From an uncultured candidatus Brocadiaceae bacterium (GTDB lineage Bacteria > Planctomycetota > Brocadiia > SM23-32): a stretch of 64,000 nucleotides of DNA. The notes under the pieces were generated by a model. The model saw nothing but the letters and a program-made list of their open reading frames with translations, was not told the DNA's origin and did not search any database. Below, piece after piece: positions 6,455 to 33,197 of this stretch. The position numbers and the translations under genes were made by a program. Location of the stretch: the NCBI GenBank assembly GCA_964521715.1, contig CAZFSS010000001.1, forward strand, positions 26,802 to 90,801. The letters are read 5' to 3'. Each line of letters begins with the position of its first letter. Positions within the stretch are counted from its first letter, which is position 1.

Positions 6455-7559
6455 GGGGGCCGCCTCCGCACGCGCGTTCCACGGCGGCGTCGAGCAGGGG
6501 GGCGACGCGGTCCCACCCGAACCGGCGCATCTCGGCGCTCAGGTCCACGGATCTCGCCTCGCCCGGACGCTCGATCCAGCGGACGAGCCGGGCCTTCAAG
6601 CCGTCCCTGTCCCCGTAGAGGCACGCATCGTGCCGGCCAGCCGGCAGCAGCTCCGGATAGCTCAGATCGTCCGGCAGAAGAGGCGCGCAGCCCGCATAGA
6701 CGGCTTCCACCACCGAGATGCCGAAGAACTCCTGCACGGCGGTCGACACGACGACGTCGCTTTCCAGCAGGAGCCGGCAGTACTCGGCGCGGGACTGCAC
6801 GTAGCCGAAACTCCTGATGCGGGGCGCAAGGCGCCGACGGGCCTCCTCGAAGATCGCCGGCGCCGTGCGGAACGTCTGGCCCGTGACGACGAGCCGGAAC
6901 TCGCGGCCCTCGTCCTGGAGTTCCATCATCAGGTCGAAGAACGTCTCGGCCCCCTTGTCGTACTCCCACCGGTGGTTCCACAGGATGCAGAGCGGGCCGT
7001 CCGGCGCTTTGGCCGAGCCGCGCTGGGCGTCGATGGACGCGAGGTCCACGCCCACGGGCACGACTTCCGAACGCTGCCTGATCCGCTCCGCCGCCCAGTC
7101 CGGCGCGTAATCCGGCATGCGTGCCAGCAGATGCCCCGCCGCCGCGAGGAAGCTCTCCATGTGGTAGCGCGAGTTGAAGAGCACGCGGTCGGCGGCCAGG
7201 CACGTCGTGATGTTCGTGAAGCCGAACTGATAGTCTCGCTCGTCCTCGCTCGGCAGGGGATAGGTGAGCTGGTTCTCGTGGAAGTAGGCCACACAGGGCA
7301 CGCCGCCCAGCAGTTCCGCCCGCGTGCCGAGGAGGGCGGCCAGGTCAAGGTAGTCGCTGACCAGCAGCGCGTCGAACGTGCCGCGCCGTTCGCTCAGGAG
7401 CTCCCCCATGGCCAGCGCCGCGCCCCGCATCCGCCACTTCCATTTGCGCGCCGGCATCGTGAGCAGATCGAGCCTGTGGCGGCTGTGCCCGCGATAGCCG
7501 TCCAGGAATGCCTGATGCGAGCCGCCGTAGTAGGGCTCCAGGGCGAGGACGCGCAGCAT
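6447..7559 (-). CDS. DUF3524-type glycosyltransferase (GT4-like)
   Basis: N-terminus MLRVLALEPYYGGSHQAFLDG is characteristic of DUF3524/GT1 proteins; C-terminal GT-B motifs (EFFGISVVEAVYAGCAPLLP); 8-bp overlap with the downstream BatA gene. Confidence 0.75.
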   Translation of the reverse strand: MLRVLALEPYYGGSHQAFLDGYRGHSRHRLDLLTMPARKWKWRMRGAALAMGELLSERRGTFDALLVSDYLDLAALLGTRAELLGGVPCVAYFHENQLTYPLPSEDERDYQFGFTNITTCLAADRVLFNSRYHMESFLAAAGHLLARMPDYAPDWAAERIRQRSEVVPVGVDLASIDAQRGSAKAPDGPLCILWNHRWEYDKGAETFFDLMMELQDEGREFRLVVTGQTFRTAPAIFEEARRRLAPRIRSFGYVQSRAEYCRLLLESDVVVSTAVQEFFGISVVEAVYAGCAPLLPDDLSYPELLPAGRHDACLYGDRDGLKARLVRWIERPGEARSVDLSAEMRRFGWDRVAPLLDAAVERACGGGPHG

Positions 7560-20566: not shown

Positions 20567-21583
20567 ATGATCAGGGTCGGAATCATAGGGCTGGGGGGCA
20601 TGGGCAACATGCATCTGGGCTGCTACGCCGCGGTCCAGGGCGCCGAGGTCGTGGCCGTGGCGGACATACGGGAGGAGAGGCTCCACGCCGGCCAGACCTC
20701 CCAGCAGATCAACATCGGCGCGGGCGGCGGCAGGCTCGATCCCGAGAAGCAGAAGCTCACCACGAACGCCGACGAGCTCATTGACGATCCGGACATCGAC
20801 ATGCTGGACATCTGCCTGCCGACGTTCCTGCACGCCGAGCACTGCAAGAAAGGGCTGCAAGCCGGCAAGCACGTCCTATGCGAGAAGCCGATGGCGCTCA
20901 CGCACCGCGAGTGCGAAGACGTGCTGAAGGTGGTCCAGGACGCCCCCGGCAAGCTGATGATCGCCCATTGCGTGCGGTTCTTCCCGGCCTACGAGTACCT
21001 GAACGAGGCGATCGAGTCCGGTCGGTTCGGCCGGCTGCTTGAGCTGTCCATGTGGCGGGGGGGCTCGCCGCCGCGCTGGTCGTGGGAGAACTGGCTCCTG
21101 AACCACGTGCGCAGCGGCGGCGGCATGCTGGACCTGCACGTGCACGACGCGGACTTCGTCCACCACGTGCTGGGCAGGCCGCGCGCCGTCTGCTCCACGG
21201 GAGCCGTGGGACCCAGCGGGGGCTACGACGCAGTGGACACCCAGTACGTCTACGAGGACAAGATGGCCGTGCGCGCCGGGGCCAACCTGGCGCTGCCGAC
21301 CGGCTTCGGCTTCGAGGCACACTTCCTGGCGGCCTTTGAGAAGGGGTGCCTGCGGTTCAGCACCGCCGAGCACGACGGGCTGATGGAGATCACCGACGAG
21401 GGCACCAGTCATCCCGGCCTGCCCGAGAAGAACGGCTACCAGGAGGAGATCGCCTACTTCGTGAGATGCATCCAGAACGACGAGGTCCCGGCCGTCGTTA
21501 CGCCCGAGTCAAGCGCCTTCTCCGTCAGGCTGATCGAGGCGGAGAGGGAATCCATCGAGACGGGCCGCTCCGTGGCGCTCTGA
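20567..21583 (+). CDS. Gfo/Idh/MocA family oxidoreductase
   Basis: Rossmann N-terminus MIRVGIIGLGGMGNMH, motif EKPMAL; GGAGG RBS 8 nt upstream. Confidence 0.9.
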   Translation: MIRVGIIGLGGMGNMHLGCYAAVQGAEVVAVADIREERLHAGQTSQQINIGAGGGRLDPEKQKLTTNADELIDDPDIDMLDICLPTFLHAEHCKKGLQAGKHVLCEKPMALTHRECEDVLKVVQDAPGKLMIAHCVRFFPAYEYLNEAIESGRFGRLLELSMWRGGSPPRWSWENWLLNHVRSGGGMLDLHVHDADFVHHVLGRPRAVCSTGAVGPSGGYDAVDTQYVYEDKMAVRAGANLALPTGFGFEAHFLAAFEKGCLRFSTAEHDGLMEITDEGTSHPGLPEKNGYQEEIAYFVRCIQNDEVPAVVTPESSAFSVRLIEAERESIETGRSVAL

Positions 21584-21601
21584 CGCGGCCCCCGTCCCCG
21601 C

Positions 21602-21835
21602 CACGGCCATCCACCACGGAGACACTGAGAACACGGAGAACGGCAACACCAGGATAAACCACTACGACACGACGAGCACAACGCAGTAATACAGGCTGTA
21701 ACGCCGTGCTCGTTGTGCCGTTGTGGTTGGCTCTCTCTGGTGCGCCGTGTTTCTGCTGTTTGTCGTTCGCCGAGGTCCCTGCCGTCTCTGCCGTTCTCGG
21801 TGCTCTCCGTGTCTCCGTGGTGAGATGTTGTCAGG
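21602..21835. repeat. copy 1 of a ~230-bp imperfect direct repeat flanking the R-M islet
   Basis: Aligns with 24373..24657 (shared cacggcca...cactgaga(c)acggag..aacggcaac..aaccactacgacacgacga.cacaacg.agtaat.caggctgtaacgccgtgctcgttgtgccgttgtggtt...ccgtctctgccgttctc.gtg.tctccgtggtg.gatgttgt); contains internal inverted repeats; coordinates approximate. Confidence 0.7.
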
Positions 21836-22151
21836 CTTCGGCCGCGCGCGCCAGGTTGAGCTCCAGCAGCTTCTCCAGTATCTCCTCGTCCGTGGTGTCG
21901 GGCTTCCAGGCCGGGTCGCCCGTCGTCGCCGCGTAGGCCGCGCAGACGGCCCCGTCCAGCTTCGCGTGTGCGTTGCGCAGCCAGGTGGGCGTCTCGTTGT
22001 AGAGGTTGGTGAGGGTCCGCTTCTTGAGGGCCTTCGCGAACGGCGGGTCCGGGACGGTGCGGGGATAGCGGACCGTGCCGATGCCGTTCTGGTCCGCGTC
22101 ATAGACGTACCGGGCCCAGGGGCCGTCTACGGAGCCGGGGAATTGGAGCAC
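21831..22151 (-). pseudogene. C-terminal remnant of a Type IIL/IIG (MmeI-like) or BREX PglX-like DNA methyltransferase
   Basis: 106-aa ORF with the characteristic C-terminal motif of these large methyltransferases: NLYNETPTWLRNAHAKLDGAVCAAYA...TDEEILEKLLELNLARA; far too short to be complete. Confidence 0.6.
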
Positions 22152-22223
22152 TTCCGCGACGGTCCACTCGGGCGGGTTGAGCCAGCGCTCGCGCAGCTCG
22201 TTCAGTTCCCGTGCGGCGAGTGT

Positions 22224-22857
22224 CTACGGCCCAATGCCGATGATGACGAGTGGGACGGGAGGGTTGTTGCGCCCGTGGCGCATTATGTTGTAGACCTCCC
22301 CCTCGAAGTACGCGATGCCGGTGGACATCAGGCGGCCGCCCTCGGGATCGCTCATCATCGCTTTCACCGGGAGAATCTCTATGCCGACGTCGATGATGCC
22401 GCCGGCGTAGAATAGCAGATGCTTGACGAACAGGTCGTAGGCGACAAACGCGTACTTGCCGAACTGTACCTCGATGGCGATTTGGTCCTTGACGAAGTCG
22501 GTCTGTTTATACGACAGGATCGGCTTCGTTACGCCGTGCTCCTCAAGGAACCTCTTCTGGTCGTCAAGGGACAGGTTCACAACTTGCTCTAACAGCTTGC
22601 GGTCAGTCGTCACGTAGTACTCGTACCGGACGCCCTGCCAGCCAGCGGCCTCGGGCCCGACTTGCGAAGCCGGCGTTCAACATGTGCGGGCTGTACAGCC
22701 TCTTCCCCTTCATCGTTTTCTCTTCGCTTACCTTCGTGCGGCACTGGTCGGCGTGTACCTGCGCGATCACGCAGTTGATTTCCCCGTAGAGACTCCGATG
22801 GTGTACGAGAAGGAACTCCTCGCCGTTCAGGTGCGAGTATACTTCGACTATCCTCAC
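22224..22857 (-). pseudogene. BglII/BstYI-family type II restriction endonuclease, split by a frameshift
   Basis: The 84-aa ORF (22603..22857, MRIVEVYSHLNGEEF...) and 129-aa ORF (22224..22613) are in different frames. The C-terminal part (KPILSYKQTDFVKDQIAIEVQFGKYAFVAYDLFVKHL...IDVGIEIL) aligns with the BglII catalytic core (DFLGTDIDFGKRDTLVEVQFSNYPFLL). Combined length of about 213 aa matches BglII (223 aa). Confidence 0.65.
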
Positions 22858-22899
22858 TGTTGGGGTCCCTCCCCGGCGGCCTGGCTTCGTCTATGATGT

Positions 22900-23793
22900 T
22901 TATGTGTCGAACAGAGAAGACGTCCGCGTGTTGCTGGCGGGCTCTTTCGGCTTGTATATGGGCTTATTCATCGGCCGAACGCGAAGTCTGCCCGCAGCCG
23001 CGGCCCTTATGCGTTCCTCCGCGATGTCGATGTACTCCTTCACTATCTCCGCACCGTGGCCGCTGCGCGCATGGCGCACAGCCGCAACGATCGTCGTCCC
23101 GACCCCAGCAAACGGATCGAAGACGGCATCCCCCGGACGAGTCATGGACAGCACGAGCCGCTCTACGAGGCCCACGGGGAACTGGCACGGATGCGCAGTC
23201 TTCTCCACATGGTTGCTCTTGACGTTCGGAATGTCCCACACGTCGCCGGGGTTCTTCCCCCGCGGGTCGCAGGAGTACTCGCCTGCCTTCGAGCCCTTGA
23301 AGTACTTCTTGCCAGGGTACTTCTGCGGGACGCGCACGGGGTCGAGATCGAAGAAGTAATCGTCGGTCTTCGTGTACCACACGATGGTCTCGTACCGGCC
23401 GGAGAAGCGGTTCTTGCAGTGCAGTCCGTGACCGAAGCGCCACACAATGCGGTTGCGCATCTTCAGACCTAAGTCCGCGAAGACCGGGTACAGCAGGGAG
23501 TCCACCGGGACGATCGCGCCGTTCTTCACATAGTTGCCGACCTGCCAGCACAGGCTGCCGTTCGGGCGCAGCACGCGCACGCACTCCGAGATGACCTGGC
23601 GCTGCTGGTCGGCGTAGCTGTCGGGGTCGATCCTGCTCTCGTACTCTTTGCCGATGTTGTACGGGGGCGAAGTAACCACAAGCTGGATGCACTCCGTCGG
23701 CATGGTGGAGAGCATCTCCAGGCAGTCCCCGTGGTACAGAGTGACAACGTTGTCGACGTGGAACGACTGAGCTATCTCGACTTGCCTGAGCAT
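22900..23793 (-). CDS. beta-class DNA methyltransferase (N4-cytosine/N6-adenine, M.BglII-like)
   Basis: Motif IV TSPPY N-terminal to motif I DPFAGVGTT (beta-class order); LYHGDCLEML N-terminus; ATG at 23791-23793 with GGAGG RBS 7 nt upstream; appears full length. Confidence 0.85.
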   Translation of the reverse strand: MLRQVEIAQSFHVDNVVTLYHGDCLEMLSTMPTECIQLVVTSPPYNIGKEYESRIDPDSYADQQRQVISECVRVLRPNGSLCWQVGNYVKNGAIVPVDSLLYPVFADLGLKMRNRIVWRFGHGLHCKNRFSGRYETIVWYTKTDDYFFDLDPVRVPQKYPGKKYFKGSKAGEYSCDPRGKNPGDVWDIPNVKSNHVEKTAHPCQFPVGLVERLVLSMTRPGDAVFDPFAGVGTTIVAAVRHARSGHGAEIVKEYIDIAEERIRAAAAGRLRVRPMNKPIYKPKEPASNTRTSSLFDT

Positions 23794-24371
23794 TCCGGCA
23801 CCTCCGAGCGCTCGGCGTTCTGCAAACGGATCGGCGTCCATTCTACCGTTCCCGTCGGCGAAAGCAACCTGCCCAACGCCGGCGCAGGCCAGGATGCTGA
23901 GCGCGGATCGGGCAGCTTGGAGAGGCGTATCTCGTGGACCTCGACGGGCGTGGCGGTGAAGTTCGTGCGGACGATGATGCGGTCCATGTCGGACACGACG
24001 AGGAGGGGCGGGTTCTCGAGGTCCTCGCGGTACTGGAGGAGCTGATCGTAGGCGGCGTCGAGGTCCTTGTGCTTGCCCTTGTGTTCCCAGGCGAAGAAGC
24101 CCTTCTTCCATACGTCGGCCCAGTCGTCGCCGCCGCCGTGCTTGGCGGCCCCCTTCTCGAAGGTGAACTACTCGCCGGTCGGGTCGGCCTCGGCGGGCTT
24201 GGGGTGGTCGACGAGCTCGCAGAGGTCGAGGAAGTGCTGCTGGGAGGCGGAGCGCTCCGAGAGATCGGCGGTGCCCCACTTCTGGATGAACCGGACGGCG
24301 TCCATGCGGATTGTGCCCTCCTCACTCCGGGCAACCCCGTGAAAGGTAACAGAACCGGCGGCCGGGGTCAA
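23772..24371 (-). pseudogene. N-terminal remnant of the same Type IIL / PglX-like DNA methyltransferase, with in-frame TAG
   Basis: Conserved N-terminal signature of MmeI/PglX-like enzymes: FIQKWGTADLSERSASQQHFLDLCELVDHPKPAEADPTGE*FTFEKGAAKHGGGDDWADVWKKGFFAWEHKGKHKDLDAAYDQLLQYREDLENPPLLVVSDMDRIIVRTNFT. The TAG at 24168-24170 replaces the Trp codon found in intact homologs; the reading frame ends at 23772. Confidence 0.6.
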
Positions 24372-24372
24372 T

Positions 24373-24657
24373 CACGGCCAGGACGGCACACCACTGAGAC
24401 ACGGAGGACACGGAGAACGGCAACGATGGGGTTAACCACTACGACACGACGAACACAACGAAGTAATGCAGGCTGTAACGCCGTGCTCGTTGTGCCGTTG
24501 TGGTTAGCTCATTCTGGTGGGCCGTCTCTCTGTTGTTCGTCGTTGCCCCAGGTATCTTCCGTCTCTGCCGTTCTCCGTGTGCTCCGTCCGGCCTTCGTAG
24601 CCGAAGCCACTTCGGCGGAGTAGGCTGTCTCCGTGGTGGGATGTTGTTGGGGGGGAC
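24373..24657. repeat. copy 2 of the ~230-bp direct repeat (carries an extra ~40-bp hairpin-containing insertion)
   Basis: Aligns with 21602..21835; extra segment ccggccttcgtagccgaagccacttcggcggagtaggctg containing the hairpin gccgaag-ccac-cttcggc; the repeat abuts the mutS stop codon (24657-24659); coordinates approximate. Confidence 0.7.
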
Positions 24658-27308
24658 TAACGGCTTTCGCGGTTCTGCTTGAGCCGCTCGATGATGTCGT
24701 TGAGCTTGTTGAGCGCTTCCAGCGGCGTCATGCCGCTCGTGTCGAGCGCGAGGAGCTCGTCCCTGACCTCCGCGTCGAGCGGCTTGAACAGCGGCATCTG
24801 GAGGTGGCGGGGCTCGGGGCCGCCAGCCCTCCTGTCGGCGGTCGACGGCTGCCTGGGGGCGAAGCGCGGCTCGTCGTTGGGCCCGACGGCGTTCTCCTCC
24901 AGGTGCTGAAGGATGTCCCGCGAGCGCTCGAGCACTTCGGCCGGCACTCCCGCCAGCCTGGCCACGTGGATGCCGTAGCTGCGGTCCGTTGCGCCAGGGA
25001 CGACGCGGTGCAGGAAGACGACCTCGTTCTGCCACTCGCGCACGGCCACGTTCAGGTTGCGCACGCCCTCGCAGACCTGTGCGAGTTGGGCCAGCTCGTG
25101 GTAGTGGGTGGCGAAGAGCGTTCTGGCGCCGATGCGATCGTGGACGTATTCGCCGGTGGCCCAGGCGATGCTGACGCCGTCGAAGGTGCTCGTGCCGCGG
25201 CCGACCTCGTCGAGGATGATGAGGCTGCGGTCGGTGGCGCTGTTGAGGATGTTGGCGACCTCGATCATCTCGACCATGAAGGTGCTCTGGCCCCGGCGCT
25301 GCTCGTCGCTGGCGCCGACGCGGGTGAAGATGCGGTCGACCAGGCCGACGGTCGCCTCGGCCGCCGGCACGAAGGAGCCAATCTGGGCCATCAGGACGAT
25401 GAGGGCCGTCTGCCGGATGTAGACGCTCTTGCCGGACATGTTCGGGCCGGTGATGACGAGAAGGCGCACCTGCTCGCCGTCCATCTCGATGTCGTTGGGC
25501 ACGAACTGCTCGTCCAGGATCCGCTCCAGCACGGGATGGCGCCCGTCCCTGATGCGCAGCGTGCGGTCCGCGGTCAGCGTGGGACGGACGTAGCCGTTCT
25601 CGTCCGCAACCGTCGCCAGCGAGACGAGCACGTCCAGGGCGGCCAGGGCTTCCGCCGTCCTCTGGAGCCTTTCGGTGTGCGAGCTGACTTGCTGGCGGAC
25701 CTGCTGGAACAGCTCGTATTCCAGCTCCTTGGCCCGCTCGCCCGCGCCCAGCACGGCGGACTCGCGATCCTTCAGCTCGGGCGTGATGTAGCGCTCGGCG
25801 TTCTTCAGCGTCTGCTTGCGGATGTAGTGCGCGGGCACCTTGTCCCGGTGGGTGTTGGTCACCTCGATGTAGTAGCCGAACACCTTGTTGAAGCCGACCT
25901 TGAGCGAGGGGATGCCGGTCCGTTCGGCCTCCTTTGCCTGGAGGTCGGCGATCCAGGTGCGGCCCTGGCGCCCGGTGCCGCGGAGCTCGTCGAGCTCCGG
26001 GTTGAATCCGTCCCGGATGATGCCGCCTTCCGTGATGACGGCGGGCGGGTCCGCCTTGATGGCGGAGGCGATCAGCCCTTCGACTTCGGGGATGGGGTCA
26101 ATGGCGGCGACCAGGTCCGCCAGCATCTGCGAGCCGACGCCGGCCGACTGCTCCTTCAGCTTGGGCAGGCGCGACAGGGATCGCCCCAGGGCGACCAGGT
26201 CCCGGGCGCCGGCGCGGGCGCAGTAGATCTTCGTCGTCAGCCGCTCGATGTCGTAAATGCTTTTGAGCTCGTTGCTTAGCGCATGGCGGCGAGGGCGGTT
26301 GCCGTGCAGTTCGGCCACGGCGTCCAGGCGCCGCTCGATCTCGTCGGCCTGGCGCAGGGGCGTAAGGAGCCAGCGCCTCAGGAGCCGCGCGCCCATCGGC
26401 GTGGACGTCCTGTCCAGCATTTGCAGGAGGCTGCCCTCCTGGCCGGCGCCGCGTATGGTATGGATGAGCTCCAGGCTGCGTTGCGTCGTGCTGTCGAGGA
26501 TCAGGTAACGCTCGCTGGCGAAGGGCTCTATCTTGCGGATGTGCCCGAGCGTGGTCTTCTGGGTCTCCTGCAGGTAGCAGAGCAGGGCGCCCGCGGCCCC
26601 GAGCGCCGGGCCCATGCCTTCGCATCCGAAGCCGTCCAGGCTGCGCGTGCCGAAGTGCCCGTTCAGCCGCCGCCGCCCGTCTTCCTGGTTGAACTCCCAC
26701 GGCGGGCGGCGCGTGATGAGGCAGCCCTCCGGCAGGCGCGCCCGGGGGGAGAGGCCGTCGCCCTCGTCCTCGCGCTCGACGCGGGGCAGGAGGCACTCAG
26801 CGGGCGAGACGCGCTGCAGGCTGTCGCCGACCGCCTCGGGGGGCACTTCTTCAACCTCGAACTTGCCGGTCGAAAGGTCGACCCAGGCCAGTCCGGCCCT
26901 GGCGTCGCCGAGCGCGACGGCCGCCAGGAAGTTATTCGAGCGGCTGTCCAGCAGGTGATCTTCGGTCAGCGTGCCGGCGGTGATAACGCGCGTGACGTCC
27001 CGCTCCACGAGCCCGGTGGCCTCCGCCGGATCCTGCACCTGCTCGCAGATGGCGACGCGGTGTCCGGCCCGGATCAGGCGCTTGATGTAGTTCTCGGCTG
27101 CGTGGTGAGGGAAGCCGGCCATGGGCACGGCGTTCTCGCCTTTCTCGCGGCTGGTCAGGGCCAGGCCGAGGTCGCGCGCGCAGACCTGCGCGTCGTCGAA
27201 GAACACCTCGTAGAAATCCCCCATGCGGAAGAGCAGGATGGCGTCCTGGTGCCTTTTCTTGAAGGCCAGGTACTGCTTCATCACGGGTGTATGGGCCGGT
27301 TTCGCCAT
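24657..27308 (-). CDS. mutS: DNA mismatch repair protein MutS
   Basis: N-terminal TPVMKQYLAFKKRH...LLFRMGDFYE, Walker A GPNMSGKS, ST..DE; full-length (~884 aa) MutS1; ATG at 27306-27308 preferred over the upstream TTG track start. Confidence 0.95.
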   Translation of the reverse strand: MAKPAHTPVMKQYLAFKKRHQDAILLFRMGDFYEVFFDDAQVCARDLGLALTSREKGENAVPMAGFPHHAAENYIKRLIRAGHRVAICEQVQDPAEATGLVERDVTRVITAGTLTEDHLLDSRSNNFLAAVALGDARAGLAWVDLSTGKFEVEEVPPEAVGDSLQRVSPAECLLPRVEREDEGDGLSPRARLPEGCLITRRPPWEFNQEDGRRRLNGHFGTRSLDGFGCEGMGPALGAAGALLCYLQETQKTTLGHIRKIEPFASERYLILDSTTQRSLELIHTIRGAGQEGSLLQMLDRTSTPMGARLLRRWLLTPLRQADEIERRLDAVAELHGNRPRRHALSNELKSIYDIERLTTKIYCARAGARDLVALGRSLSRLPKLKEQSAGVGSQMLADLVAAIDPIPEVEGLIASAIKADPPAVITEGGIIRDGFNPELDELRGTGRQGRTWIADLQAKEAERTGIPSLKVGFNKVFGYYIEVTNTHRDKVPAHYIRKQTLKNAERYITPELKDRESAVLGAGERAKELEYELFQQVRQQVSSHTERLQRTAEALAALDVLVSLATVADENGYVRPTLTADRTLRIRDGRHPVLERILDEQFVPNDIEMDGEQVRLLVITGPNMSGKSVYIRQTALIVLMAQIGSFVPAAEATVGLVDRIFTRVGASDEQRRGQSTFMVEMIEVANILNSATDRSLIILDEVGRGTSTFDGVSIAWATGEYVHDRIGARTLFATHYHELAQLAQVCEGVRNLNVAVREWQNEVVFLHRVVPGATDRSYGIHVARLAGVPAEVLERSRDILQHLEENAVGPNDEPRFAPRQPSTADRRAGGPEPRHLQMPLFKPLDAEVRDELLALDTSGMTPLEALNKLNDIIERLKQNRESR

Positions 27309-27514
27309 GTAAGGAGGGCCCGCCGAGGTGAATTCCGGGGACGCCGGCTGCAAAGATATAGGGAGCTTCTCACCTTGTCAATCGGCCCGCTCGCGAGCTG
27401 TCCCCGACCGGCGGGGGACGGGGCCCGGCAGGACGGTTGGAAAGCCGCCTGTGGCCGTGTTAGCATGCGGTCCGGACGCGGGACAGGTGAGACAGGCGGC
27501 CGGAGGCGGCTGGA

Positions 27515-27991
27515 TTGAGTCCGAGACGATGCCCGCAATGCGGCGCCGAGTGCGAGGGCAGGGCGCGCTTCTGCACGGCCTGCGGCGCCAGGCTTGCCGC
27601 AGGGCTTGCGGAACGGCTGAGGGTCGAGTACGAGGAGCAGGAGGAGCCCAGCGGCCCTGTGCTGCTGCTCTACTGGTTCCTGGACCTCTTTCCGGGCCTA
27701 ATGAGGCCCAAGGTGCTCATCCTCTCGATACTGGCGGTGCCCGTGGCGGCGGCGGTCGGTGTGCTGGGCCTGTTCATCACCGGCCTTGGGGCGGTGATCG
27801 CGGGCATGCTCATCGCCGGTTTCGCCCTGGTGATCTACTCCACGGCGGTGGCCTGGATGATCTACGGCGACCTGGCGGCGCCGTCCGAGGCGCTGGCCGA
27901 TTTCGACGGCAAGAGGTGGGTCGCCTTCCTGCTGCTGGCATTGGCGCCCATAGCGATCGGCCTGGCCCTGATTGGGGGCGGGGGGCCGTAG
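27515..27991 (+). CDS. zinc-ribbon membrane protein (hypothetical)
   Basis: N-terminal CPQCGAECEGRARFCTACG zinc ribbon followed by three TM helices; TTG start 8 nt downstream of a GGAGG; no in-frame ATG nearby. Confidence 0.5.
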   Translation: MSPRRCPQCGAECEGRARFCTACGARLAAGLAERLRVEYEEQEEPSGPVLLLYWFLDLFPGLMRPKVLILSILAVPVAAAVGVLGLFITGLGAVIAGMLIAGFALVIYSTAVAWMIYGDLAAPSEALADFDGKRWVAFLLLALAPIAIGLALIGGGGP

Positions 27992-28020
27992 GGCGCCGAA
28001 TGCTGACTCGCCGAATGTCG

Positions 28021-28049
28021 TTGACATGCGGGCGCCCGTGGCTTATACT
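28021..28049 (+). promoter_or_regulatory. sigma-70 type promoter of rplM-rpsI (TTGACA-17-TATACT)
   Basis: ttgaca tgcgggcgcccgtggct tatact about 60 nt upstream of rplM; coordinates +/-2. Confidence 0.5.
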
Positions 28050-28109
28050 TGGCCTTTTGCCTGCTACGGGGGCGCGGGTCTGGTTGTTGTTCCCTGCGGG
28101 TCATGTGCG

Positions 28110-28544
28110 ATGAAGACGCCATCTGCCAGAAAAGAAGACTTCGAGAACAACCGTCGCTGGTACCATGTCGATGCGAGCGGCAAGGTGCTGGGCCGCCTGG
28201 CCACGCGCGTGGCGACGGTCCTGATGGGCAAGGACAGGCCCGACTTCACCCGGCACGTGGACACCGGCGCATTCGTCGTGGTCACCAACGCGGAGAAGGT
28301 GGCGCTGACGGGCTCAAAGCGGTCCCAGAAGGTCTACAGGCACTACTCGGGCTATCCGGGCGGTCTGAAGGAGAGGTCCGTCGGCGAGCTGCTGGAGAGG
28401 CGGCCCGACTTCGTCGTGCGCGAGTCCGTCAGACGGATGCTGCCGAAGAGCAAGCTCGGCGCGAAGATGCTCAAGAAGCTCAAGGTCTACGCCGGACCGG
28501 CGCATCCGCATACGTACCACAAGCCGGAGGAGCTGGAGGTCTGA
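28110..28544 (+). CDS. rplM: 50S ribosomal protein L13
   Basis: WYHVDASGKVLGRLATRVA...KVYAG closely matches L13 family sequences. Confidence 0.95.
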   Translation: MKTPSARKEDFENNRRWYHVDASGKVLGRLATRVATVLMGKDRPDFTRHVDTGAFVVVTNAEKVALTGSKRSQKVYRHYSGYPGGLKERSVGELLERRPDFVVRESVRRMLPKSKLGAKMLKKLKVYAGPAHPHTYHKPEELEV

Positions 28545-28607
28545 GGCCCGGAGTGCCGCTTTGTCGTTCCGGGCAGCCTGCCGTCGAAGCCGAGAAAGAC
28601 AAGGGCT

Positions 28608-29000
28608 ATGCCGGGCATTTATGACTGGGGAACGGGACGCAGGAAGAGCGCCGTGGCCGCCGTGCGGATCAAGCCGGGCACGGGCGTCATCAAAGTCAAC
28701 GGCAAGGACATGGAGGGGTACTTCACGCGCGAGGACCATCAGCACACCATCCGCGAGCCCCTGCGCGTGACGCACAACCAGGGACGTTACGACATCTTCG
28801 TGCGCGTCCGGGGCGGCGGGATCACCGGCCAGGCCGGCGCCGTCCGCCTCGGCGTGGCGCGCGCCCTCCTTAAGAGCGATTCGTCCCTGCACGGCTCGCT
28901 GAGGGAGGAGGGGCTGCTGACGCGCGACAGCCGACGCGTCGAACGCAAGAAGTACGGCTTGCGCGGCGCGCGCCGTGCCCCGCAGTACAGCAAGCGCTGA
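28608..29000 (+). CDS. rpsI: 30S ribosomal protein S9
   Basis: GTGRRKSAVAAVRIKPGTG...RVERKKYGLRGARRAPQYSKR is the S9 signature C-terminus. Confidence 0.95.
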   Translation: MPGIYDWGTGRRKSAVAAVRIKPGTGVIKVNGKDMEGYFTREDHQHTIREPLRVTHNQGRYDIFVRVRGGGITGQAGAVRLGVARALLKSDSSLHGSLREEGLLTRDSRRVERKKYGLRGARRAPQYSKR

Positions 29001-29093
29001 ACGCCGCGAGGGTCCCGACTGCCGAATGAAACGGGCGCCCGGCGAGATGTCTCCCGCCGGACGCCCATGGCTTTGTACGGCTCGGCCTGCGGC

Positions 29094-29846
29094 CTATTCG
29101 GCCTCCAGTTCCGCGACGAGTTCGGGGGGCAGGCTGAAGTTCGAGTGGACGTTCGTCACGTCCTCGTTGTCTTCCAGTTCCTCCATCAGCTTGAGGGCTT
29201 TGAGGCCGTCATCGCGCGAGAGGTCGACGTAGGACTTCGGCACCATCGTCACCTGGGCCGATTCCCACTTCACGTTTGCGGCGCTCAGGGCGACCTTGAC
29301 GCGCTGGAGCTGCCTGACGTCGCAGCTCAGTTCATAGAGGTCCCCCTCCCTCTGGAAGTCATCGGCCCCCGCCTCGATTGCGATGTCGAACAGCTCGTCC
29401 TCGCTCCTGTCGTTGAGAGGCAGGAGGACCAGACCCTTCGTCTCGAAGCTCCAGGCGACGCAGCCGCTGGCGCCGAGCTCGCCGCCGTGGCTGCTGAGTA
29501 TCTTGCGCACTTCGGAGGTGGTGCGGTTGCGATTGTCGGTCAGCACGTCCACCATGACGGCCGCTCCGCCCGCGCCGTAGCCTTCGTAGCGCACGCCCTC
29601 CAGCTTGGTTCCTTCCAGCTCGCCAACCCCCTTCAGGATCGCCCGTTCGACCGTGTCCTTGGGCATGTTGGCGGCCCTGGCCTCCTCGATGGCGTACTTG
29701 AGCTCCAGGTTGAGGTCCGGGTCCTTGCCTGCCCTTCTGGCGGCGCTCATGATCTGTTTGGCGACCCGGCTGAAGACCTTGCCGCGCCTCTTGTCTTCCT
29801 TGGCCTTCTTGTGCTTTATGGTAGCCCAGTGTGAATGCCCCGACAT
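29094..29846 (-). CDS. YebC/PmpR family DNA-binding transcriptional regulator
   Basis: MSGHSHWATIKHKKAKEDKRRGKVFSRVAKQI is the canonical YebC N-terminus. Confidence 0.95.
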   Translation of the reverse strand: MSGHSHWATIKHKKAKEDKRRGKVFSRVAKQIMSAARRAGKDPDLNLELKYAIEEARAANMPKDTVERAILKGVGELEGTKLEGVRYEGYGAGGAAVMVDVLTDNRNRTTSEVRKILSSHGGELGASGCVAWSFETKGLVLLPLNDRSEDELFDIAIEAGADDFQREGDLYELSCDVRQLQRVKVALSAANVKWESAQVTMVPKSYVDLSRDDGLKALKLMEELEDNEDVTNVHSNFSLPPELVAELEAE

Positions 29847-30260
29847 GTTCCGCCCTTTCTATTGGCGAGTCGCTGCGACGGGTTGGGACGGACGGATGGG
29901 GGTCGAGCGGCTATGGGCCGTACGGTGGGGGCTTCTTCTTGCGCAGCACGGGCGGGAGCATAATCCCTGGACCCGTGACGGGCCGGTCCGTGACGTTCAC
30001 CGGTGGGCTTCCTTCCGATACGGTATTGCCAGCAGCATTATACAGCACGGATTGCCCGGCGCAAAGTGCGCGGCGGACGCCGGCGCCGCCCGCCCTGCCC
30101 GGGCGGCTTGTTCGCCCCTGCGGCCGGGGCGTATAATCCGCCCGTGGCCGCCCCACCCGAGCCCAGCCATGCCGCTTGAGGAATGCCAGAGGAAGCTGGC
30201 GAGGCGTGAACGCCCGCCGGATGCGGGCGCCGAGACGAAGCCGATAACGAGGGGTCCGAG

Positions 30261-30635
30261 ATGAGAGCCTTGCGGGCCGTGGTCGCACGCACCGGCCGGG
30301 CGCTCCTGGAGCGCGTAGAGGTCGCCGAAGTCGGCTGGCAGCGCGTCAGGGGGCTGATGCTCCGCAAGGAGCTTGCTGCGGGCGAGGGGCTCCTGATCCC
30401 GGGCTGCGGCAGCGTCCACATGTTCTTCATGCGGTTCCCGATCGACCTCGTCTACCTGGACCGTGAGGATCGGGTGGTGAAGATCGTGGACGGCATCAAG
30501 CCGTGGCGGCTTTCGGCGTGTCTGGGTGCGCGCTCGGTCCTGGAGATCGCGGCCGGCCGTGCCCGTGAGGTGGGGCTGCAGGTGGGGGACAGCCTGCGCT
30601 TCGAACGCCGCGCGGCTTCGTCCGACCGAGGTTGA
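30261..30635 (+). CDS. DUF192 domain protein
   Basis: GLMLRKELAAGEGLLIPGCGSVHMFFMRFPIDLVYLD matches the DUF192 (ACR, COG1430) pattern. Confidence 0.7.
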   Translation: MRALRAVVARTGRALLERVEVAEVGWQRVRGLMLRKELAAGEGLLIPGCGSVHMFFMRFPIDLVYLDREDRVVKIVDGIKPWRLSACLGARSVLEIAAGRAREVGLQVGDSLRFERRAASSDRG

Positions 30636-30680
30636 AGCCAGCAGGGAACGCGCCCGCCGGACTCCCGTGCCTCCCGGACT

Positions 30681-31745
30681 TCAGCCCTGGCCCTTTGACC
30701 AGTTCTCGGGCCTGAGGCCGCGGACTGCGGCGCCCGCCTGCCACATTTCGGAGTTTTTCATTTGGTCCAGTTCGGCCCGCAGCTTCTCGGCGTAGTCCGG
30801 AGCGCTATTGGCGTCGAGGACGATCTGGGTCTCGGTGCCGTCCTGGACTCTCTTGTAGAGCTCGTTGAAGACCGGCTCGACGGCCTTGCGGAACTTGTGC
30901 CGCCAGTCGAGGGCCCCGCGCTGCGCCGTCGTGCTGCAGTTGGCGTACATCCAGTCCATGCCGTTCTGCGCGATGAGGGGGATCAAGCTCTGCGTGGCCT
31001 CTTCGACCGTCTCGTTGAACGCCTCGCTGGGCGTGTGGCCGCGCTTGCGCAGCAGGTTGTACTGGGCCTCCATGATGCCGGCCAGGGCGCCCATCAGCAC
31101 GCCTCGCTCTCCCGTCAGGTCGCTCCAGACTTCCTTCTCGAACGTGGTGCGGAACAGGTAGCCGGACCCGACGGCGATGCCGATGGCCAGGCAGCGCTCT
31201 TGGGCGCGCCCCGTGGCGTCCTGGAAGACGGCGTAGCTGGAGTTGATGCCGCTGCCTTTGAGGAAGTTCTGTCGCACCGACCGGCCCGCGCCCTTCGGGG
31301 CGACCAGGATGACGTCCACGTCCTCGGGCGGCTCCACCCCGGTACGGTCCCGGTAGACGATGGAGAAGCCGTGGGAGAAGTAGAGGGCGTCGCCGGCCTT
31401 CAGGCACGGCTTCACCCTCGGCCAGCAGATCATCTGCGCCGCGTCGCTGACGAGGTACTGGACGATCGTTCCCTTCTCGGCAGCCTCCTCGATGGGGAAG
31501 AGCGTCTCGTCCGGCTCCCAGCCGTCGGCCAGGGCGCGGTCCCAGTCCCTCTTGAACTCGGGCGCCTGGCCGATGATGACGCTGAAGCCGTTGTCGCGCA
31601 TGTTCAGCGATTGCGCCGGGCCCTGGACGCCGTAGCCGATGACGCAGATGACCTCATCGTCGAGGACCTCGTGGGCCCTCTCCATCGTGAACTCCTCGCG
31701 TGTCACGACATCTTCGACGACGCCTCCGAAGTCGATCTTGGCCAT
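30681..31745 (-). CDS. ilvC: ketol-acid reductoisomerase
   Basis: ICVIGYGVQGPAQSLNMRDNG Rossmann motif and the C-terminal knotted domain typical of class I KARI. Confidence 0.95.
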   Translation of the reverse strand: MAKIDFGGVVEDVVTREEFTMERAHEVLDDEVICVIGYGVQGPAQSLNMRDNGFSVIIGQAPEFKRDWDRALADGWEPDETLFPIEEAAEKGTIVQYLVSDAAQMICWPRVKPCLKAGDALYFSHGFSIVYRDRTGVEPPEDVDVILVAPKGAGRSVRQNFLKGSGINSSYAVFQDATGRAQERCLAIGIAVGSGYLFRTTFEKEVWSDLTGERGVLMGALAGIMEAQYNLLRKRGHTPSEAFNETVEEATQSLIPLIAQNGMDWMYANCSTTAQRGALDWRHKFRKAVEPVFNELYKRVQDGTETQIVLDANSAPDYAEKLRAELDQMKNSEMWQAGAAVRGLRPENWSKGQG

Positions 31746-31982
31746 TGTCTCGCTCCCTCGGCAAGAGGCACGGGTTTGGGCGGAAGTCCTGGTCAGGCCA
31801 CACCCCCGCTGCGGCCGCCCGACGCGGTTTAGGCCGCGCGACGCGGTTTCGGCCGCGCAGCGCCGCTGCGGCCGCGGAAGGCCATTCTGTCCCGCCGGCG
31901 CCGGTTTTTCAAGGGCATCCCTTCGTTGCGGCTCCCGCGCGGATGTGCTCTAATCGGGGGACCACTCTCTGGAGGGGCCCGC

Positions 31983-33197
31983 ATGCCGAAGCGTAGGCGC
32001 AGCCCGGCAGCTGCACACACGATAGGCTACTTCGACTGCTTCAGTGGCATCAGCGGCGACATGTGCCTGGGGGCAATCGTCGACGCCGGCGTGCCGCTCC
32101 AGACGATACGGGACGCGCTGGCGGGCCTGCCGGTCTCTGGCTACTCGCTGGAGGCCGAGCCCGTCGTCCGGGGCGGCATCGCCGCCACGCAGGTGCAGGT
32201 GAAGCTGGACGATCACGAGCATCATCCCCATCGCGGCCTGGCCGACGTGCTGGACATCGTCCAAGGCGGCGCCCTGCCGGACGACGTGGCCGAGCGGAGC
32301 GCGGCCGTTTTCCGCAACCTGGCTGAAGCCGAAGCGAAGGTCCACGGCACGGACGTCGACAGCGTTCATTTCCACGAGGTCGGGGCCGTCGACGCCATCT
32401 GCGACGTCGTGGGCACGGTCGTCGGCCTGCGGGAGCTCGGGGTGGGGGCGCTGAAGTTCTCCACCGTCATGTTGGGCGGCGGCACGGCGCGGTCAGCCCA
32501 CGGCTTCCTGCCCGTGCCGGCCCCAGCCACGGCGGAGCTGCTCAAAGGGCTGCCCTCGGCGGGAGGCCCGGTCGACTTCGAGCTCACTACGCCGACCGGC
32601 GCGGCCATACTGAAGGCCCTGGGCGAGCCGTCGCCTCGATGGCCCCGGATGACGATCGACGCCGTGGGATACGGCGCGGGAAGCCGCGAGATCGGGGCGC
32701 TGCCCAACGTGCTGCGGCTGGCGCTCGGCACTGCCGAGCCGGCGGAGGGGACGGAAGCCGACTGCATCTGGGTGCTCGACACAAACCTGGATGACATGAC
32801 GGGCGAGGAGATCGGCTATTGCACCGAGAAGCTGATGGCCGCCGGCGCGCTGGACGTCTTCACGGCGCCGGTGCAGATGAAGAAGAACCGCCCGGGCGTG
32901 CTGCTCACCGTCCTTTGCGCGCCCGAGGCGCTGGCGGCCATGGAGGGCCTCCTGTGGAGGCACACTTCGACGCTCGGCGTGCGCCGTTGCCTGTGGCAGC
33001 GCTCCAAGCTGCGCCGGGAGACCGTGACAGTGCAGACGGCCTGGGGAGACGTGAGGGTCAAGGTCGCCTACCTGGGGGACGAGGCCGTCCGCCGTGAGCC
33101 GGAGTACGAGGATTGCCGGGCCCTGGCCGATGCCCACGGCGTCCCGCTGCGGGAGGTGAGCCGGGCGGCGGTCGCGGCGGCCGATGGCGGGACCTGA
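31983..33197 (+). CDS. larC: nickel-pincer cofactor biosynthesis protein LarC (DUF111)
   Basis: N-terminal GYFDCFSGISGDMCLGA, FHEVGAVDAICDVVG; typical ~400-aa LarC. Confidence 0.85.
   Translation: MPKRRRSPAAAHTIGYFDCFSGISGDMCLGAIVDAGVPLQTIRDALAGLPVSGYSLEAEPVVRGGIAATQVQVKLDDHEHHPHRGLADVLDIVQGGALPDDVAERSAAVFRNLAEAEAKVHGTDVDSVHFHEVGAVDAICDVVGTVVGLRELGVGALKFSTVMLGGGTARSAHGFLPVPAPATAELLKGLPSAGGPVDFELTTPTGAAILKALGEPSPRWPRMTIDAVGYGAGSREIGALPNVLRLALGTAEPAEGTEADCIWVLDTNLDDMTGEEIGYCTEKLMAAGALDVFTAPVQMKKNRPGVLLTVLCAPEALAAMEGLLWRHTSTLGVRRCLWQRSKLRRETVTVQTAWGDVRVKVAYLGDEAVRREPEYEDCRALADAHGVPLREVSRAAVAAADGGT

Follow-up and report, generated by a model that had tools for sequence, protein, structure and literature searches.

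Among characterised enzymes BstYI of Geobacillus stearothermophilus Y406, which recognises R^GATCY and is represented in the PDB by the entries 1sdo, 1vrr, and 2p0j, is the closest relative of the endonuclease treated here. BglII shares its Pfam family and its fold class with BstYI. The BglII system contains a controller (C) gene, and its genes are arranged in the order C-R-M. BglII recognises AGATCT, which is one of the sequences covered by RGATCY (PMC2731914). M.BglII methylates cytosine at N4, and N4-methylcytosine (m4C) has also been reported for M.BamHI and possibly for M.BstYI (PMC2890505).

Two views exist on the origin of solitary methyltransferases. Solitary methyltransferases derived from decayed restriction-modification systems, with intermediates which still carry a degraded endonuclease, were described by Seshasayee et al. 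2012 (PMC3424554), whereas Oliveira et al. 2014 (PMC4176335) argued that such decay is not the source of most solitary methyltransferases, and reported total loss of restriction-modification systems as frequent. Furuta et al. 2010 (PMC2853133) described allelic substitution between types of restriction-modification systems, as well as long target duplications and insertion between repeats by chance.

The locus analysed here very probably is a BstYI-type two-gene type IIP operon in which a recent +1 frameshift has killed the endonuclease and in which an uninterrupted methyltransferase likely still methylates its target. A +1 frameshift within codons 65–72 would inactivate the endonuclease, the methyltransferase, which has the SPPY motif, the AdoMet-binding FxGxG, and a good ribosome-binding site, would keep marking its target, and the cell would retain this mark while no longer restricting DNA, so that a solitary methyltransferase would be emerging. 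The locus is an ordinary and often-met stage in the decay of restriction-modification systems, and nothing in it is unexpected to a specialist.

Organisation of the locus

The window, i.e., the whole stretch of 64,000 nucleotides which was analysed, contains the following features around the two genes.

21612 to 21831, no strand: copy A of a palindromic repeat, about 220 nt, imperfect, a direct repeat with internal inverted arms
21831 to 22223, minus strand: C-terminal remnant of an MmeI-like type IIL gene, about 130 codons, weak PF20467 match
22224 to 22857, minus strand: pseudogene of a BstYI-type type IIP restriction endonuclease, GTG start, PD-(D/E)XK, BglII/BstYI family
22642 to 22668, minus strand: interval containing the +1 frameshift, from the F64 codon to that of G72/W73, placed by homology and by enumerating single-base deletions
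22867 to 22874, minus strand: Shine-Dalgarno-like GGGGAGGG, 9 nt before the endonuclease GTG, read from the sequence
22900 to 23793, minus strand: beta-class amino-methyltransferase (N4-C/N6-A type), 297 amino acids, uninterrupted, assigned by PF01555 and motifs
23801 to 23805, minus strand: GGAGG ribosome-binding site, 7 nt 5' of the methyltransferase ATG, read from the sequence
23840 to 23867, minus strand: candidate cassette promoter, TTGCTT-16 nt-TAGAAT, from alignment and BLAST boundaries, below the scan threshold
23904 to 24305, minus strand: N-terminal remnant of the MmeI-like type IIL gene, about 134 codons, relatives mostly PF20464
24389 to 24647, no strand: copy B of the palindromic repeat, a direct repeat with internal inverted arms

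The methyltransferase gene precedes the endonuclease gene on the same (minus) strand, with a spacer of 42 nt between the methyltransferase stop and the endonuclease start, an arrangement which looks operon-like. Related loci show the same order with spacers of 12–100 nt. In contrast to the C-R-M order of the BglII system there is no room for a controller gene, as no ORF fits into the 42-nt gap or into the approximately 110 nt between the MmeI-like remnant and the methyltransferase start. A consensus scan of positions 21500–24700 found no promoter. The TTGCTT/TAGAAT site is tentatively put forward as a possible cassette promoter; at the place aligned to it the related locus L004 has TTGCTA, 16 nt, and TACAAT, and the similarity to the cassette of locus L003 begins at 23868, directly next to it. 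The cassette has a G+C content of 60% as compared to 68% for the window, which suggests a foreign origin.

The endonuclease pseudogene

As initially described, the endonuclease region consists of two minus-strand ORFs which lie in different frames and overlap, one ranging from 22603 to 22857 (84 amino acids) and one from 22224 to 22613 (129 amino acids). The original prediction located the frame switch near 22603–22613 and arrived at a combined length of about 213 amino acids. These 11 nucleotides are, however, only the overlap of the ORFs, where the upstream ORF reaches its out-of-frame stop codon (22603–22605) and the frame of the downstream ORF has a GTG, whereas comparison with homologues places the lesion 30–65 nt upstream, at 22642–22668. 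This placement was made at the codon level with six related loci (L003, L004, L005, L008, L035, and L037). The gene has a length of 634 nt (633 + 1), and removal of one base anywhere in 22642–22668 gives a single ORF of 210 codons and not 213. This is also the most common length in the family, found exactly in 104 of the 120 closest endonuclease relatives.

The repaired protein matches the PF09195 profile with 87.9 bits (cut-off 26) over profile positions 1–162 of 163, and the 129-amino acid fragment by itself is annotated as PF09195 in Logan gene calls; no NCBIfam model matches the endonuclease. As the gene is read in two frames instead of an uninterrupted one, it belongs to the PF09195 family as a pseudogene. 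The matches to relatives go beyond chance, the best E-values against non-identical ones being 1e-103 (endonuclease) and 1e-163 (methyltransferase). The likeness to BstYI (PDB 1sdo) is collinear and extends over the full length, with an E-value of 2e-66 and 56% identity (residues 1–212 versus 1–203). The two proteins have in common the N-terminus MRIVEVYSHLNG, the D...E-x-Q block with the following lysine, and the membership in PF09195. They differ in length (203 amino acids in BstYI, 210 in the repaired window protein, the gene of which is frameshifted), in a 6-residue insertion near residue 170 which is typical of the subfamily of the window protein, and in the replacement of Ser172 of BstYI by Thr179. 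Also the hosts differ, a thermophilic Firmicute for BstYI and a high-G+C environmental bacterium for the window. The repaired endonuclease aligns without gaps to 10 relatives, and only BstYI adds gaps of its own to this alignment, in which the columns of D120, E129, Q131, and K134 are invariant. These residues align with D119, E128, Q130, and K133 of BstYI, the catalytic residues according to the BstYI/BglII literature. BglII has 223 amino acids in comparison to the 210 of the repaired protein, and a direct sequence search of the PDB with the endonuclease did not find BglII at E <= 1. The initial designation as BglII-like holds at the Pfam family level only, and the endonuclease is an orthologue of BstYI. 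For annotation, both endonuclease ORFs belong to one BstYI-type pseudogene and should be joined under that label.

Starting from the GTG, translation would yield 65 native residues and 19 out-of-frame residues followed by the stop, and a putative restart at GTG 22613 would yield residues 82–210 only. Residues 66–81, which include the invariant G72, W73, R77, Y80, and Y81, are thus correctly encoded by neither ORF. Since neither product has these five residues, the cutting activity is presumably lost and the fragments are predicted to be inert. The lesion is recent because all other conserved residues are intact, the repaired endonuclease agreeing with its relatives at 93 of 94 columns conserved to at least 95%. 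Within the interval the GGGCCC run at 22653–22658 would be the simplest site of the frameshift.

A single additional base in such a short G3C3 run is also a plausible error of a consensus caller, and the otherwise complete set of conserved residues is what a working gene would show, so that the frameshift could be an artefact of sequencing or assembly in an organism with a complete and active BstYI-type system. Three-base runs are not error-prone in short-read data. The same frameshift was found without gaps in Logan contigs of four runs (ERR4334733, ERR4334734, ERR4334736, and ERR3804378), which belong to two accession series and were assembled separately. These contigs are 99.9–100% identical to the window; as the window assembly may share runs with them, the independence is one of runs and assemblers and not necessarily one of samples. 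The contig of ERR3804378 carries a SNP at position 22976 together with the same frameshift and represents a slightly different population. In addition, residue 68, which is phenylalanine or leucine in 120 of 120 relatives (phenylalanine in 97%), is restored by no single-base deletion, which argues that a simple miscount is not the whole story. An assembly error is unlikely because the frameshift is identical in four separate run assemblies, one of them with a SNP elsewhere, and a complete active system behind a faulty sequence is considered very improbable. The frameshift noted originally was reproduced in this way.

The 11-nt overlap and the GTG at the beginning of the downstream ORF might also indicate that the gene is functional in its split form, either by low-level ribosomal +1 frameshifting or by assembly of the fragments into an attenuated enzyme, and attenuated restriction could be tolerated by the cell. 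At the true lesion, however, neither a slippery sequence nor a stop-codon context is present, GTG 22613 is not preceded by a Shine-Dalgarno sequence, and the relatives are single ORFs, predominantly of the 210-residue length given above. Frameshifts in other endonucleases of the family sit at different positions, as is expected from random decay and not from a programmed site. Programmed frameshifting and a split enzyme were rejected since residues 66–81 are encoded by neither ORF, and such a functional split ranks as the least probable of the alternatives considered, with hardly any chance of being correct.

The methyltransferase and its target

The methyltransferase ORF extends from the ATG at 23793 to the stop at 22900–22902. 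As claimed before, it belongs to the beta class. Motif IV (SPPY, residues 42–45) precedes motif I (DPFAGVGTT, residues 226–234), the circularly permuted order by which the beta group is defined (PMC2890505), and the protein matches PF01555 with 178.5 bits over profile positions 1–221 of 221. The nearest solved structure is that of M.RsrI (E 1.6e-38), an m6A enzyme, and the nearest NCBIfam models are adenine-specific and lie far under their cut-offs. Relatives of the methyltransferase have 299–315 amino acids and 64–79% identity, and their neighbours are BstYI-type endonucleases in the same order. An identical methyltransferase protein was found in NCBI and Logan records.

The gene had been called intact, a description which is borne out for the ORF, the motifs, and the GGAGG ribosome-binding site, and which for the activity is a prediction from these features. 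The protein agrees with 119 relatives at 119 of 121 columns conserved to at least 95%. The two unusual substitutions at such columns are L97V and P168S, with proline at position 168 in 118 of the 119 relatives, and these could lower the activity.

Most likely the methyltransferase still methylates a target of the BstYI type, either RGATCY or a closely similar sequence, a specificity which is extrapolated from the 56% identity of the endonuclease to BstYI. The modified base is probably N4 of cytosine because SPPY is found together with a BstYI partner. The prediction that RGATCY is marked, probably as m4C, would aid the interpretation of methylome data in this organism. In the window RGATCY occurs 47 times as compared to 62 occurrences expected from a Markov model or 47.5 from a zero-order model. 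Against the Markov expectation this corresponds to an observed/expected ratio of 0.76 with a one-sided Poisson P of about 0.03. The site is at most mildly depleted, and the counts neither support nor exclude long past restriction pressure.

Alternatively, neither gene of the cassette may function any more, with a methyltransferase whose ORF is still open but which is inactive or silent and gives no orphan methylation, the locus being a remnant heading to deletion. The substitutions L97V and P168S and the result of the promoter scan would fit to this, as would the syntenic relative L175, in which both the methyltransferase and the endonuclease genes are gone while the upstream stub is retained, and the frequent total loss reported in the literature (PMC4176335). 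On the other hand catalytic and AdoMet-binding motifs, ribosome-binding site, and full length are all preserved, and an uninterrupted methyltransferase is the rule in related loci with a defective endonuclease (see below). Moreover, the endonuclease must have failed first, and only very recently, because an earlier failure of the methyltransferase would have turned the 47 RGATCY sites of the window into lethal targets. We regard a completely dead cassette as unlikely, while giving it more weight than a sequencing artefact or a functional split, and an inactive endonuclease next to a methyltransferase which probably still works remains the preferred reading.

Decay in related loci

Loss of the endonuclease with retention of the methyltransferase had been named as the classic decay route, and the related loci are in line with this. 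Of 74 loci which could be assessed, the endonuclease is intact in 56 and defective or absent in 18 (24%). In 17 of these 18 the methyltransferase is kept uninterrupted, and four of the 17 have wholly lost the endonuclease. These figures bear on the question whether solitary methyltransferases originate by decay in situ (PMC3424554) or only rarely do so (PMC4176335).

The proposal of an orphan methyltransferase stands in part. There is no functional cognate endonuclease at this locus, as the adjacent gene is frameshifted in four runs, but relatives do not have the methyltransferase as a conserved solitary gene. Because the endonuclease is still intact in L003, L004, and L008, the closest relatives, and L175 has lost both genes, the orphan state would be a very recent one and not that of a long-conserved solitary methyltransferase. 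With the intermediates in PMC3424554 the locus shares a functional-looking methyltransferase beside a degraded endonuclease on horizontally acquired DNA. It differs from the solitary methyltransferases of that study in the very recent decay by one lesion and in the missing conservation as a solitary gene.

The MmeI-like remnants and the palindromic repeats

The BstYI-type pair lies within the remains of a defunct MmeI-like type IIL gene. The N-terminal remnant of this gene contains an in-frame TAG (24168–24170) where relatives have a TGG codon for tryptophan, which is also found in L003 and L004. Direct Pfam and NCBIfam scans of this remnant gave no match, and it is identified as MmeI-like because its relatives are annotated in this way. 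These relatives are 62–83% identical to it; PF20464 (MmeI_N) is found in most of them, and several have 'type IIL restriction-modification enzyme MmeI' as their name. The C-terminal remnant starts right after the stop codon of the endonuclease and matches PF20467 (MmeI_C) with E-values of 1.5e-4 to 2.3e-4, under the gathering score. Its DNA is 83% identical to positions 6639–7018 of L004, where the ORF also weakly matches MmeI_C. Every Logan contig stops at position 22179 of the window, and the sequence to its left may be shared with another MmeI-like copy or a strain variant. Approximately 670 codons from the middle of the gene are absent; in the related gene of L089 about 2.85 kb lie between the N- and C-terminal matches. 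In terms of the type IIL domains (MmeI_N, helicase-like, methyltransferase, TRD, and MmeI_C), only remnants are present here instead of one polypeptide of approximately 900–1000 amino acids. The nesting is a tidy example of successive turnover of restriction-modification systems at one chromosomal site.

The two repeat copies are 83–85% identical and lie in direct orientation, each with internal inverted arms. Copy A is located between the stop of a Gfo/Idh/MocA gene (21583) and the end of the MmeI-like remnant, copy B between the start of the MmeI-like remnant and the stop of MutS (24657). The DNA hairpin of copy A has a calculated energy of -61.7 kcal/mol (z = -6.4), and contigs from four runs end within this copy at 21641–21643. 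With Rfam the palindromic repeats gave chance-level microRNA-hairpin matches only. An exact scan of metagenomes with a 17-mer from the repeat core yielded 120 matches, most of them without similarity past the core. About a dozen loci showed extended repeat similarity, and only L175 among these adjoins an MmeI stub. The repeat family is dispersed: about a dozen metagenome contigs contain it at other places, and it occurs away from MmeI genes as well.

Like the cases in PMC2853133 the window has a cassette in the deleted middle of an MmeI-like gene, with direct repeats of about 220 nt on both sides. It differs from them in that its repeats are members of a palindromic family with dispersed copies, that no target duplication is evident, and that no empty site was recovered. 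For the empty site (Gfo - repeat - MutS), the contigs with the Gfo gene break in repeat A, and the synteny of L175 ends after the stub.

The composite of MmeI stubs around the methyltransferase and endonuclease genes is also present in L003, L004, and L008, there with different neighbour genes and with intact endonucleases. The order repeat-stub-M-R-stub-repeat could represent a recurrent and possibly mobile or recombination-prone module of a group of high-G+C bacteria, in which the cassette displaces the type IIL core, one restriction-modification system replacing another, and the stubs or the repeats act as the arms for movement between genomic sites. The occurrence on four contigs with differing neighbours (the window, L003, L004, and L008) would speak for such a module, as would the repeats which adjoin the composite in the window, L004, and L008 and are also present at L175. 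Against it, the stub of L175 sits at the same chromosomal place beside MutS, which fits vertical inheritance with local rearrangement, and the repeats are found also away from MmeI genes. A mobile module is a doubtful reading, less probable than a dead cassette. The idea that MmeI genes generally serve as landing sites was also considered and found to be unsupported, as the long contigs with the short MmeI_N proteins P0255, P0250, and P0249 had fragmented MmeI-like genes with no cassette. L008 stems from a Pirellulales MAG.

Organisation of the gene pair and identity of the endonuclease

The gene pair is best read as an operon of the BstYI type, with the methyltransferase ahead of the endonuclease. 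Most likely the endonuclease has been abolished by a recent +1 frameshift while the methyltransferase would still mark RGATCY. The original prediction had recognised a restriction-modification pair and its decay, and had misplaced the lesion and the closest relative. The ORF listing comprises the following reading frames.

22900–23793, minus strand: methyltransferase, 297 amino acids, from an ATG at 23793 to a stop at 22900–22902
22603–22857, minus strand: upstream endonuclease ORF, 84 amino acids, GTG start
22224–22613, minus strand: downstream endonuclease ORF, 129 amino acids, in a different frame

Three-frame translation showed that the 84 amino acid ORF starts with MRIVEVYSHLNG and turns to nonsense past MLNAGFAS, and that upstream of the GTG of the 129 amino acid ORF the frame of the latter already encodes PEAAGWQGVRYEYYVTTDRKLLEQ. 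The methyltransferase contains SPPY at residues 42–45 and DPFAGVGTT at residues 226–234 and has GGAGG 7 nt upstream of its ATG; its stop is separated by 42 nt from the GTG of the endonuclease, which has GGGGAGGG 9 nt upstream. ORFs, SPPY, DPFAGVGTT and GGAGG had all been described correctly.

When the two endonuclease frames were joined, the protein matched BstYI (PDB 1sdo) from the first to the last residue with an E value of 2e-66. The search of the PDB yielded no other significant chain, and BglII was absent at E <= 1. With Pfam PF09195 (Endonuc-BglII) the joined protein scored 87.9 bits, so the label BglII-like holds for the Pfam family while the closest characterised relative is BstYI. 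Thousands of relatives were found among 5.8 billion proteins searched; the best 120, which served for comparison, showed 62–77% identity, and 104 of them were exactly 210 amino acids long. The gene in the window has 634 nt, which equals 210 codons, a stop and one extra base, and with one base removed it aligned without gaps with ten relatives and BstYI.

The lesion

Phenylalanine 64 (22666–22668) is the last invariant residue in the original frame and glycine 72 and tryptophan 73 are the first in the new one, which places the lesion within 22642–22668; most simply it would lie in the GGGCCC run at 22653–22658. The frame switch proposed earlier at 22603–22613 is just the place where the two called ORFs overlap. 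The repaired protein agreed with the best 120 relatives at 93 of the 94 columns conserved to at least 95%, and as the rest of the protein is thus undecayed the damage must be recent. The sole mismatch is residue 68, at the lesion, where 116 relatives have phenylalanine and four leucine. Neither can be obtained by any single-base deletion, the outcome being proline, alanine, glycine or arginine depending on the base removed; the lesion thus goes a little beyond a simple one-base slip in a gene of consensus sequence. Aspartate 120, glutamate 129, glutamine 131, and lysine 134 of the repaired protein correspond to aspartate 119, glutamate 128, glutamine 130, and lysine 133 of BstYI, which form its catalytic block. 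Residues 66–81 with five invariant positions are encoded by neither ORF; the endonuclease is therefore considered abolished, and it is very unlikely that the frameshift is programmed or that the split enzyme still works.

Public assemblies were queried with the exact methyltransferase and the exact 129 amino acid fragment. Logan contigs, which are run-level assemblies, were gap-free over the lesion in four sequencing runs, with 100% identity to the window in ERR4334733, ERR4334734, and ERR4334736 and 99.9% in ERR3804378. One base distinguishes the ERR3804378 contig from the window, a substitution at 22976, which is position two of codon 273 in the methyltransferase gene. This contig therefore represents a slightly different population with the same frameshift. 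An assembly artefact is very unlikely, as four separate run-level assemblies concur on a three-base run, an agreement among assemblies of runs from some of which the window itself may derive.

Methyltransferase and its presumed target

The methyltransferase matched the whole PF01555 profile, and its nearest solved structure is M.RsrI. Motif IV precedes motif I, the order that defines the beta class (PMC2890505). Its relatives (64–79% identity, 299–315 amino acids) have a BstYI-type endonuclease next downstream. Out of 121 highly conserved columns it agreed at 119, the misses being L97V, where 115 of 119 relatives have leucine, and P168S, where 118 of 119 have proline. These exchanges may be early signs of relaxed constraint after endonuclease loss, or neutral. 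The earlier description of the methyltransferase as intact stands for the ORF, which is uninterrupted and keeps its motifs; it has to be qualified by the two exchanges, and activity of the enzyme is what we infer. That the methyltransferase is already inactive too, a reading which differs from the main one solely in this activity, is unlikely.

RGATCY is the site cut by BstYI (PMC2731914), and by analogy with this partner enzyme it is the presumed target of the methyltransferase. With 47 RGATCY sites in the window, a cell that lost methylation while it could still cut would have died, which matches the order of events here. In a maximal-order Markov analysis of the same 64 kb certain palindromic hexamers were strongly avoided (ATCGAT O/E 0.10, CAGCTG 0.17, AAGCTT 0.32), a hint that restriction of the ClaI, PvuII, and HindIII types acts or has acted on the genome. 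RGATCY was only mildly depleted (O/E 0.76).

Endonuclease decay across the family

Scanning one genome per GTDB species for the methyltransferase yielded 80 loci from many phyla, which were supplemented by the related loci L003, L004, and L005 found by exact protein look-up. The endonuclease downstream of each methyltransferase was then classified.

State of the endonuclease in the surveyed loci
Intact: 56 loci
Frameshifted: 6 loci (an upper estimate, since some assemblies may contain frameshift errors)
In-frame stops: 3 loci
Partial deletion: 5 loci
Absent within 6 kb: 4 loci
Truncated by contig ends, not assessable: 9 loci

Deletions and absences are unaffected by such errors. The methyltransferase was open in all loci except L076. 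A dead or missing endonuclease was found in 18 of 74 assessable loci (24%), 17 of which kept an open methyltransferase. This supports the classic decay route that had been invoked, a route to solitary methyltransferases proposed previously (PMC3424554), and the 24% figure is relevant to a contrary pan-genome result (PMC4176335).

The MmeI-like surroundings and their repeats

While the decayed pair is of a well-known kind, the nested, repeat-flanked composite in which it lies is the one part that might repay more work. Its further components are as follows.

22223 down to 21831, minus strand: C-terminal stub of an MmeI-like type IIL enzyme, about 130 residues, weak match to Pfam MmeI_C
24305 down to about 23904, minus strand: N-terminal stub of an MmeI-like type IIL enzyme, about 134 residues, recognised from annotated relatives
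21612–21831: copy A of an imperfect palindrome of about 220 nt, direct repeat
24389–24647: copy B of this palindrome

The C-stub begins directly past the endonuclease stop. Among relatives of the N-stub (62–83% identity), most have the MmeI_N domain (PF20464) and several bear the name type IIL enzyme MmeI; an in-frame TAG at 24168–24170 interrupts the stub where L003 and L004 have TGG. A related gene in locus L089 spans about 2.85 kb from N match to C match, so about 670 middle codons are missing here. Their place is occupied by the 1.64-kb cassette, with a G+C content of 60% against 68% for the window. The four Logan contigs bearing the cassette all stop precisely at 22179, after about 45 nt of the C-stub. 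This suggests that the sequence leftward of this point has two different contexts in the samples, the second being a strain variant or a paralogous MmeI-like gene.

The palindrome copies are 83–85% identical, bracket the whole island and have no further copies in the 64-kb window; the sequence folds into a long hairpin (z = -6.4). Copies with extended similarity were found in about a dozen further metagenome contigs, away from any MmeI gene, and contigs of four runs break inside copy A; the palindrome is therefore a dispersed repeat family. A MITE- or REP-like element, a target duplication, and a recombination arm are candidates for its nature. The two flanking copies might stem from a long target duplication, might have received the island between them by chance insertion, or might take part in mobility, categories which have been distinguished before (PMC2853133).

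The composite of N-stub, methyltransferase, endonuclease, and C-stub is also found in L003, L004, and L008, a Pirellulales MAG, with varying neighbouring genes and endonucleases that are all intact (209–213 amino acids). L003 shares with the window the junction at the endonuclease stop; the N-stubs are shorter. The repeat core adjoins the composite on one side in L004 and on both sides in L008, and is also present in the related contig L175. Positions 5205–8633 of L175 are syntenic with 24112–32217 of the window (MutS and genes beyond) at 83% DNA identity, in the order MutS, repeat, N-stub, and stretch upstream of the methyltransferase. This stretch is 91.5% identical to L004 until 23 nt ahead of the methyltransferase ATG; beyond it L175 has neither methyltransferase nor endonuclease and unrelated DNA follows instead, including a 348 amino acid ORF. 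L175 is thus a case of complete cassette loss or replacement. On the simplest reading the composite would have long occupied this site in the chromosome, selection would have kept both genes in several lineages, that of L175 would have lost them wholly, and the lineage of the window would only just have lost its endonuclease. Between L004 and the window the MmeI stubs share 82–83% DNA identity and the intervening genes only 72%, which would be explained by faster evolution of the foreign cassette than of the flanks, or by recombination that exchanged one or the other.
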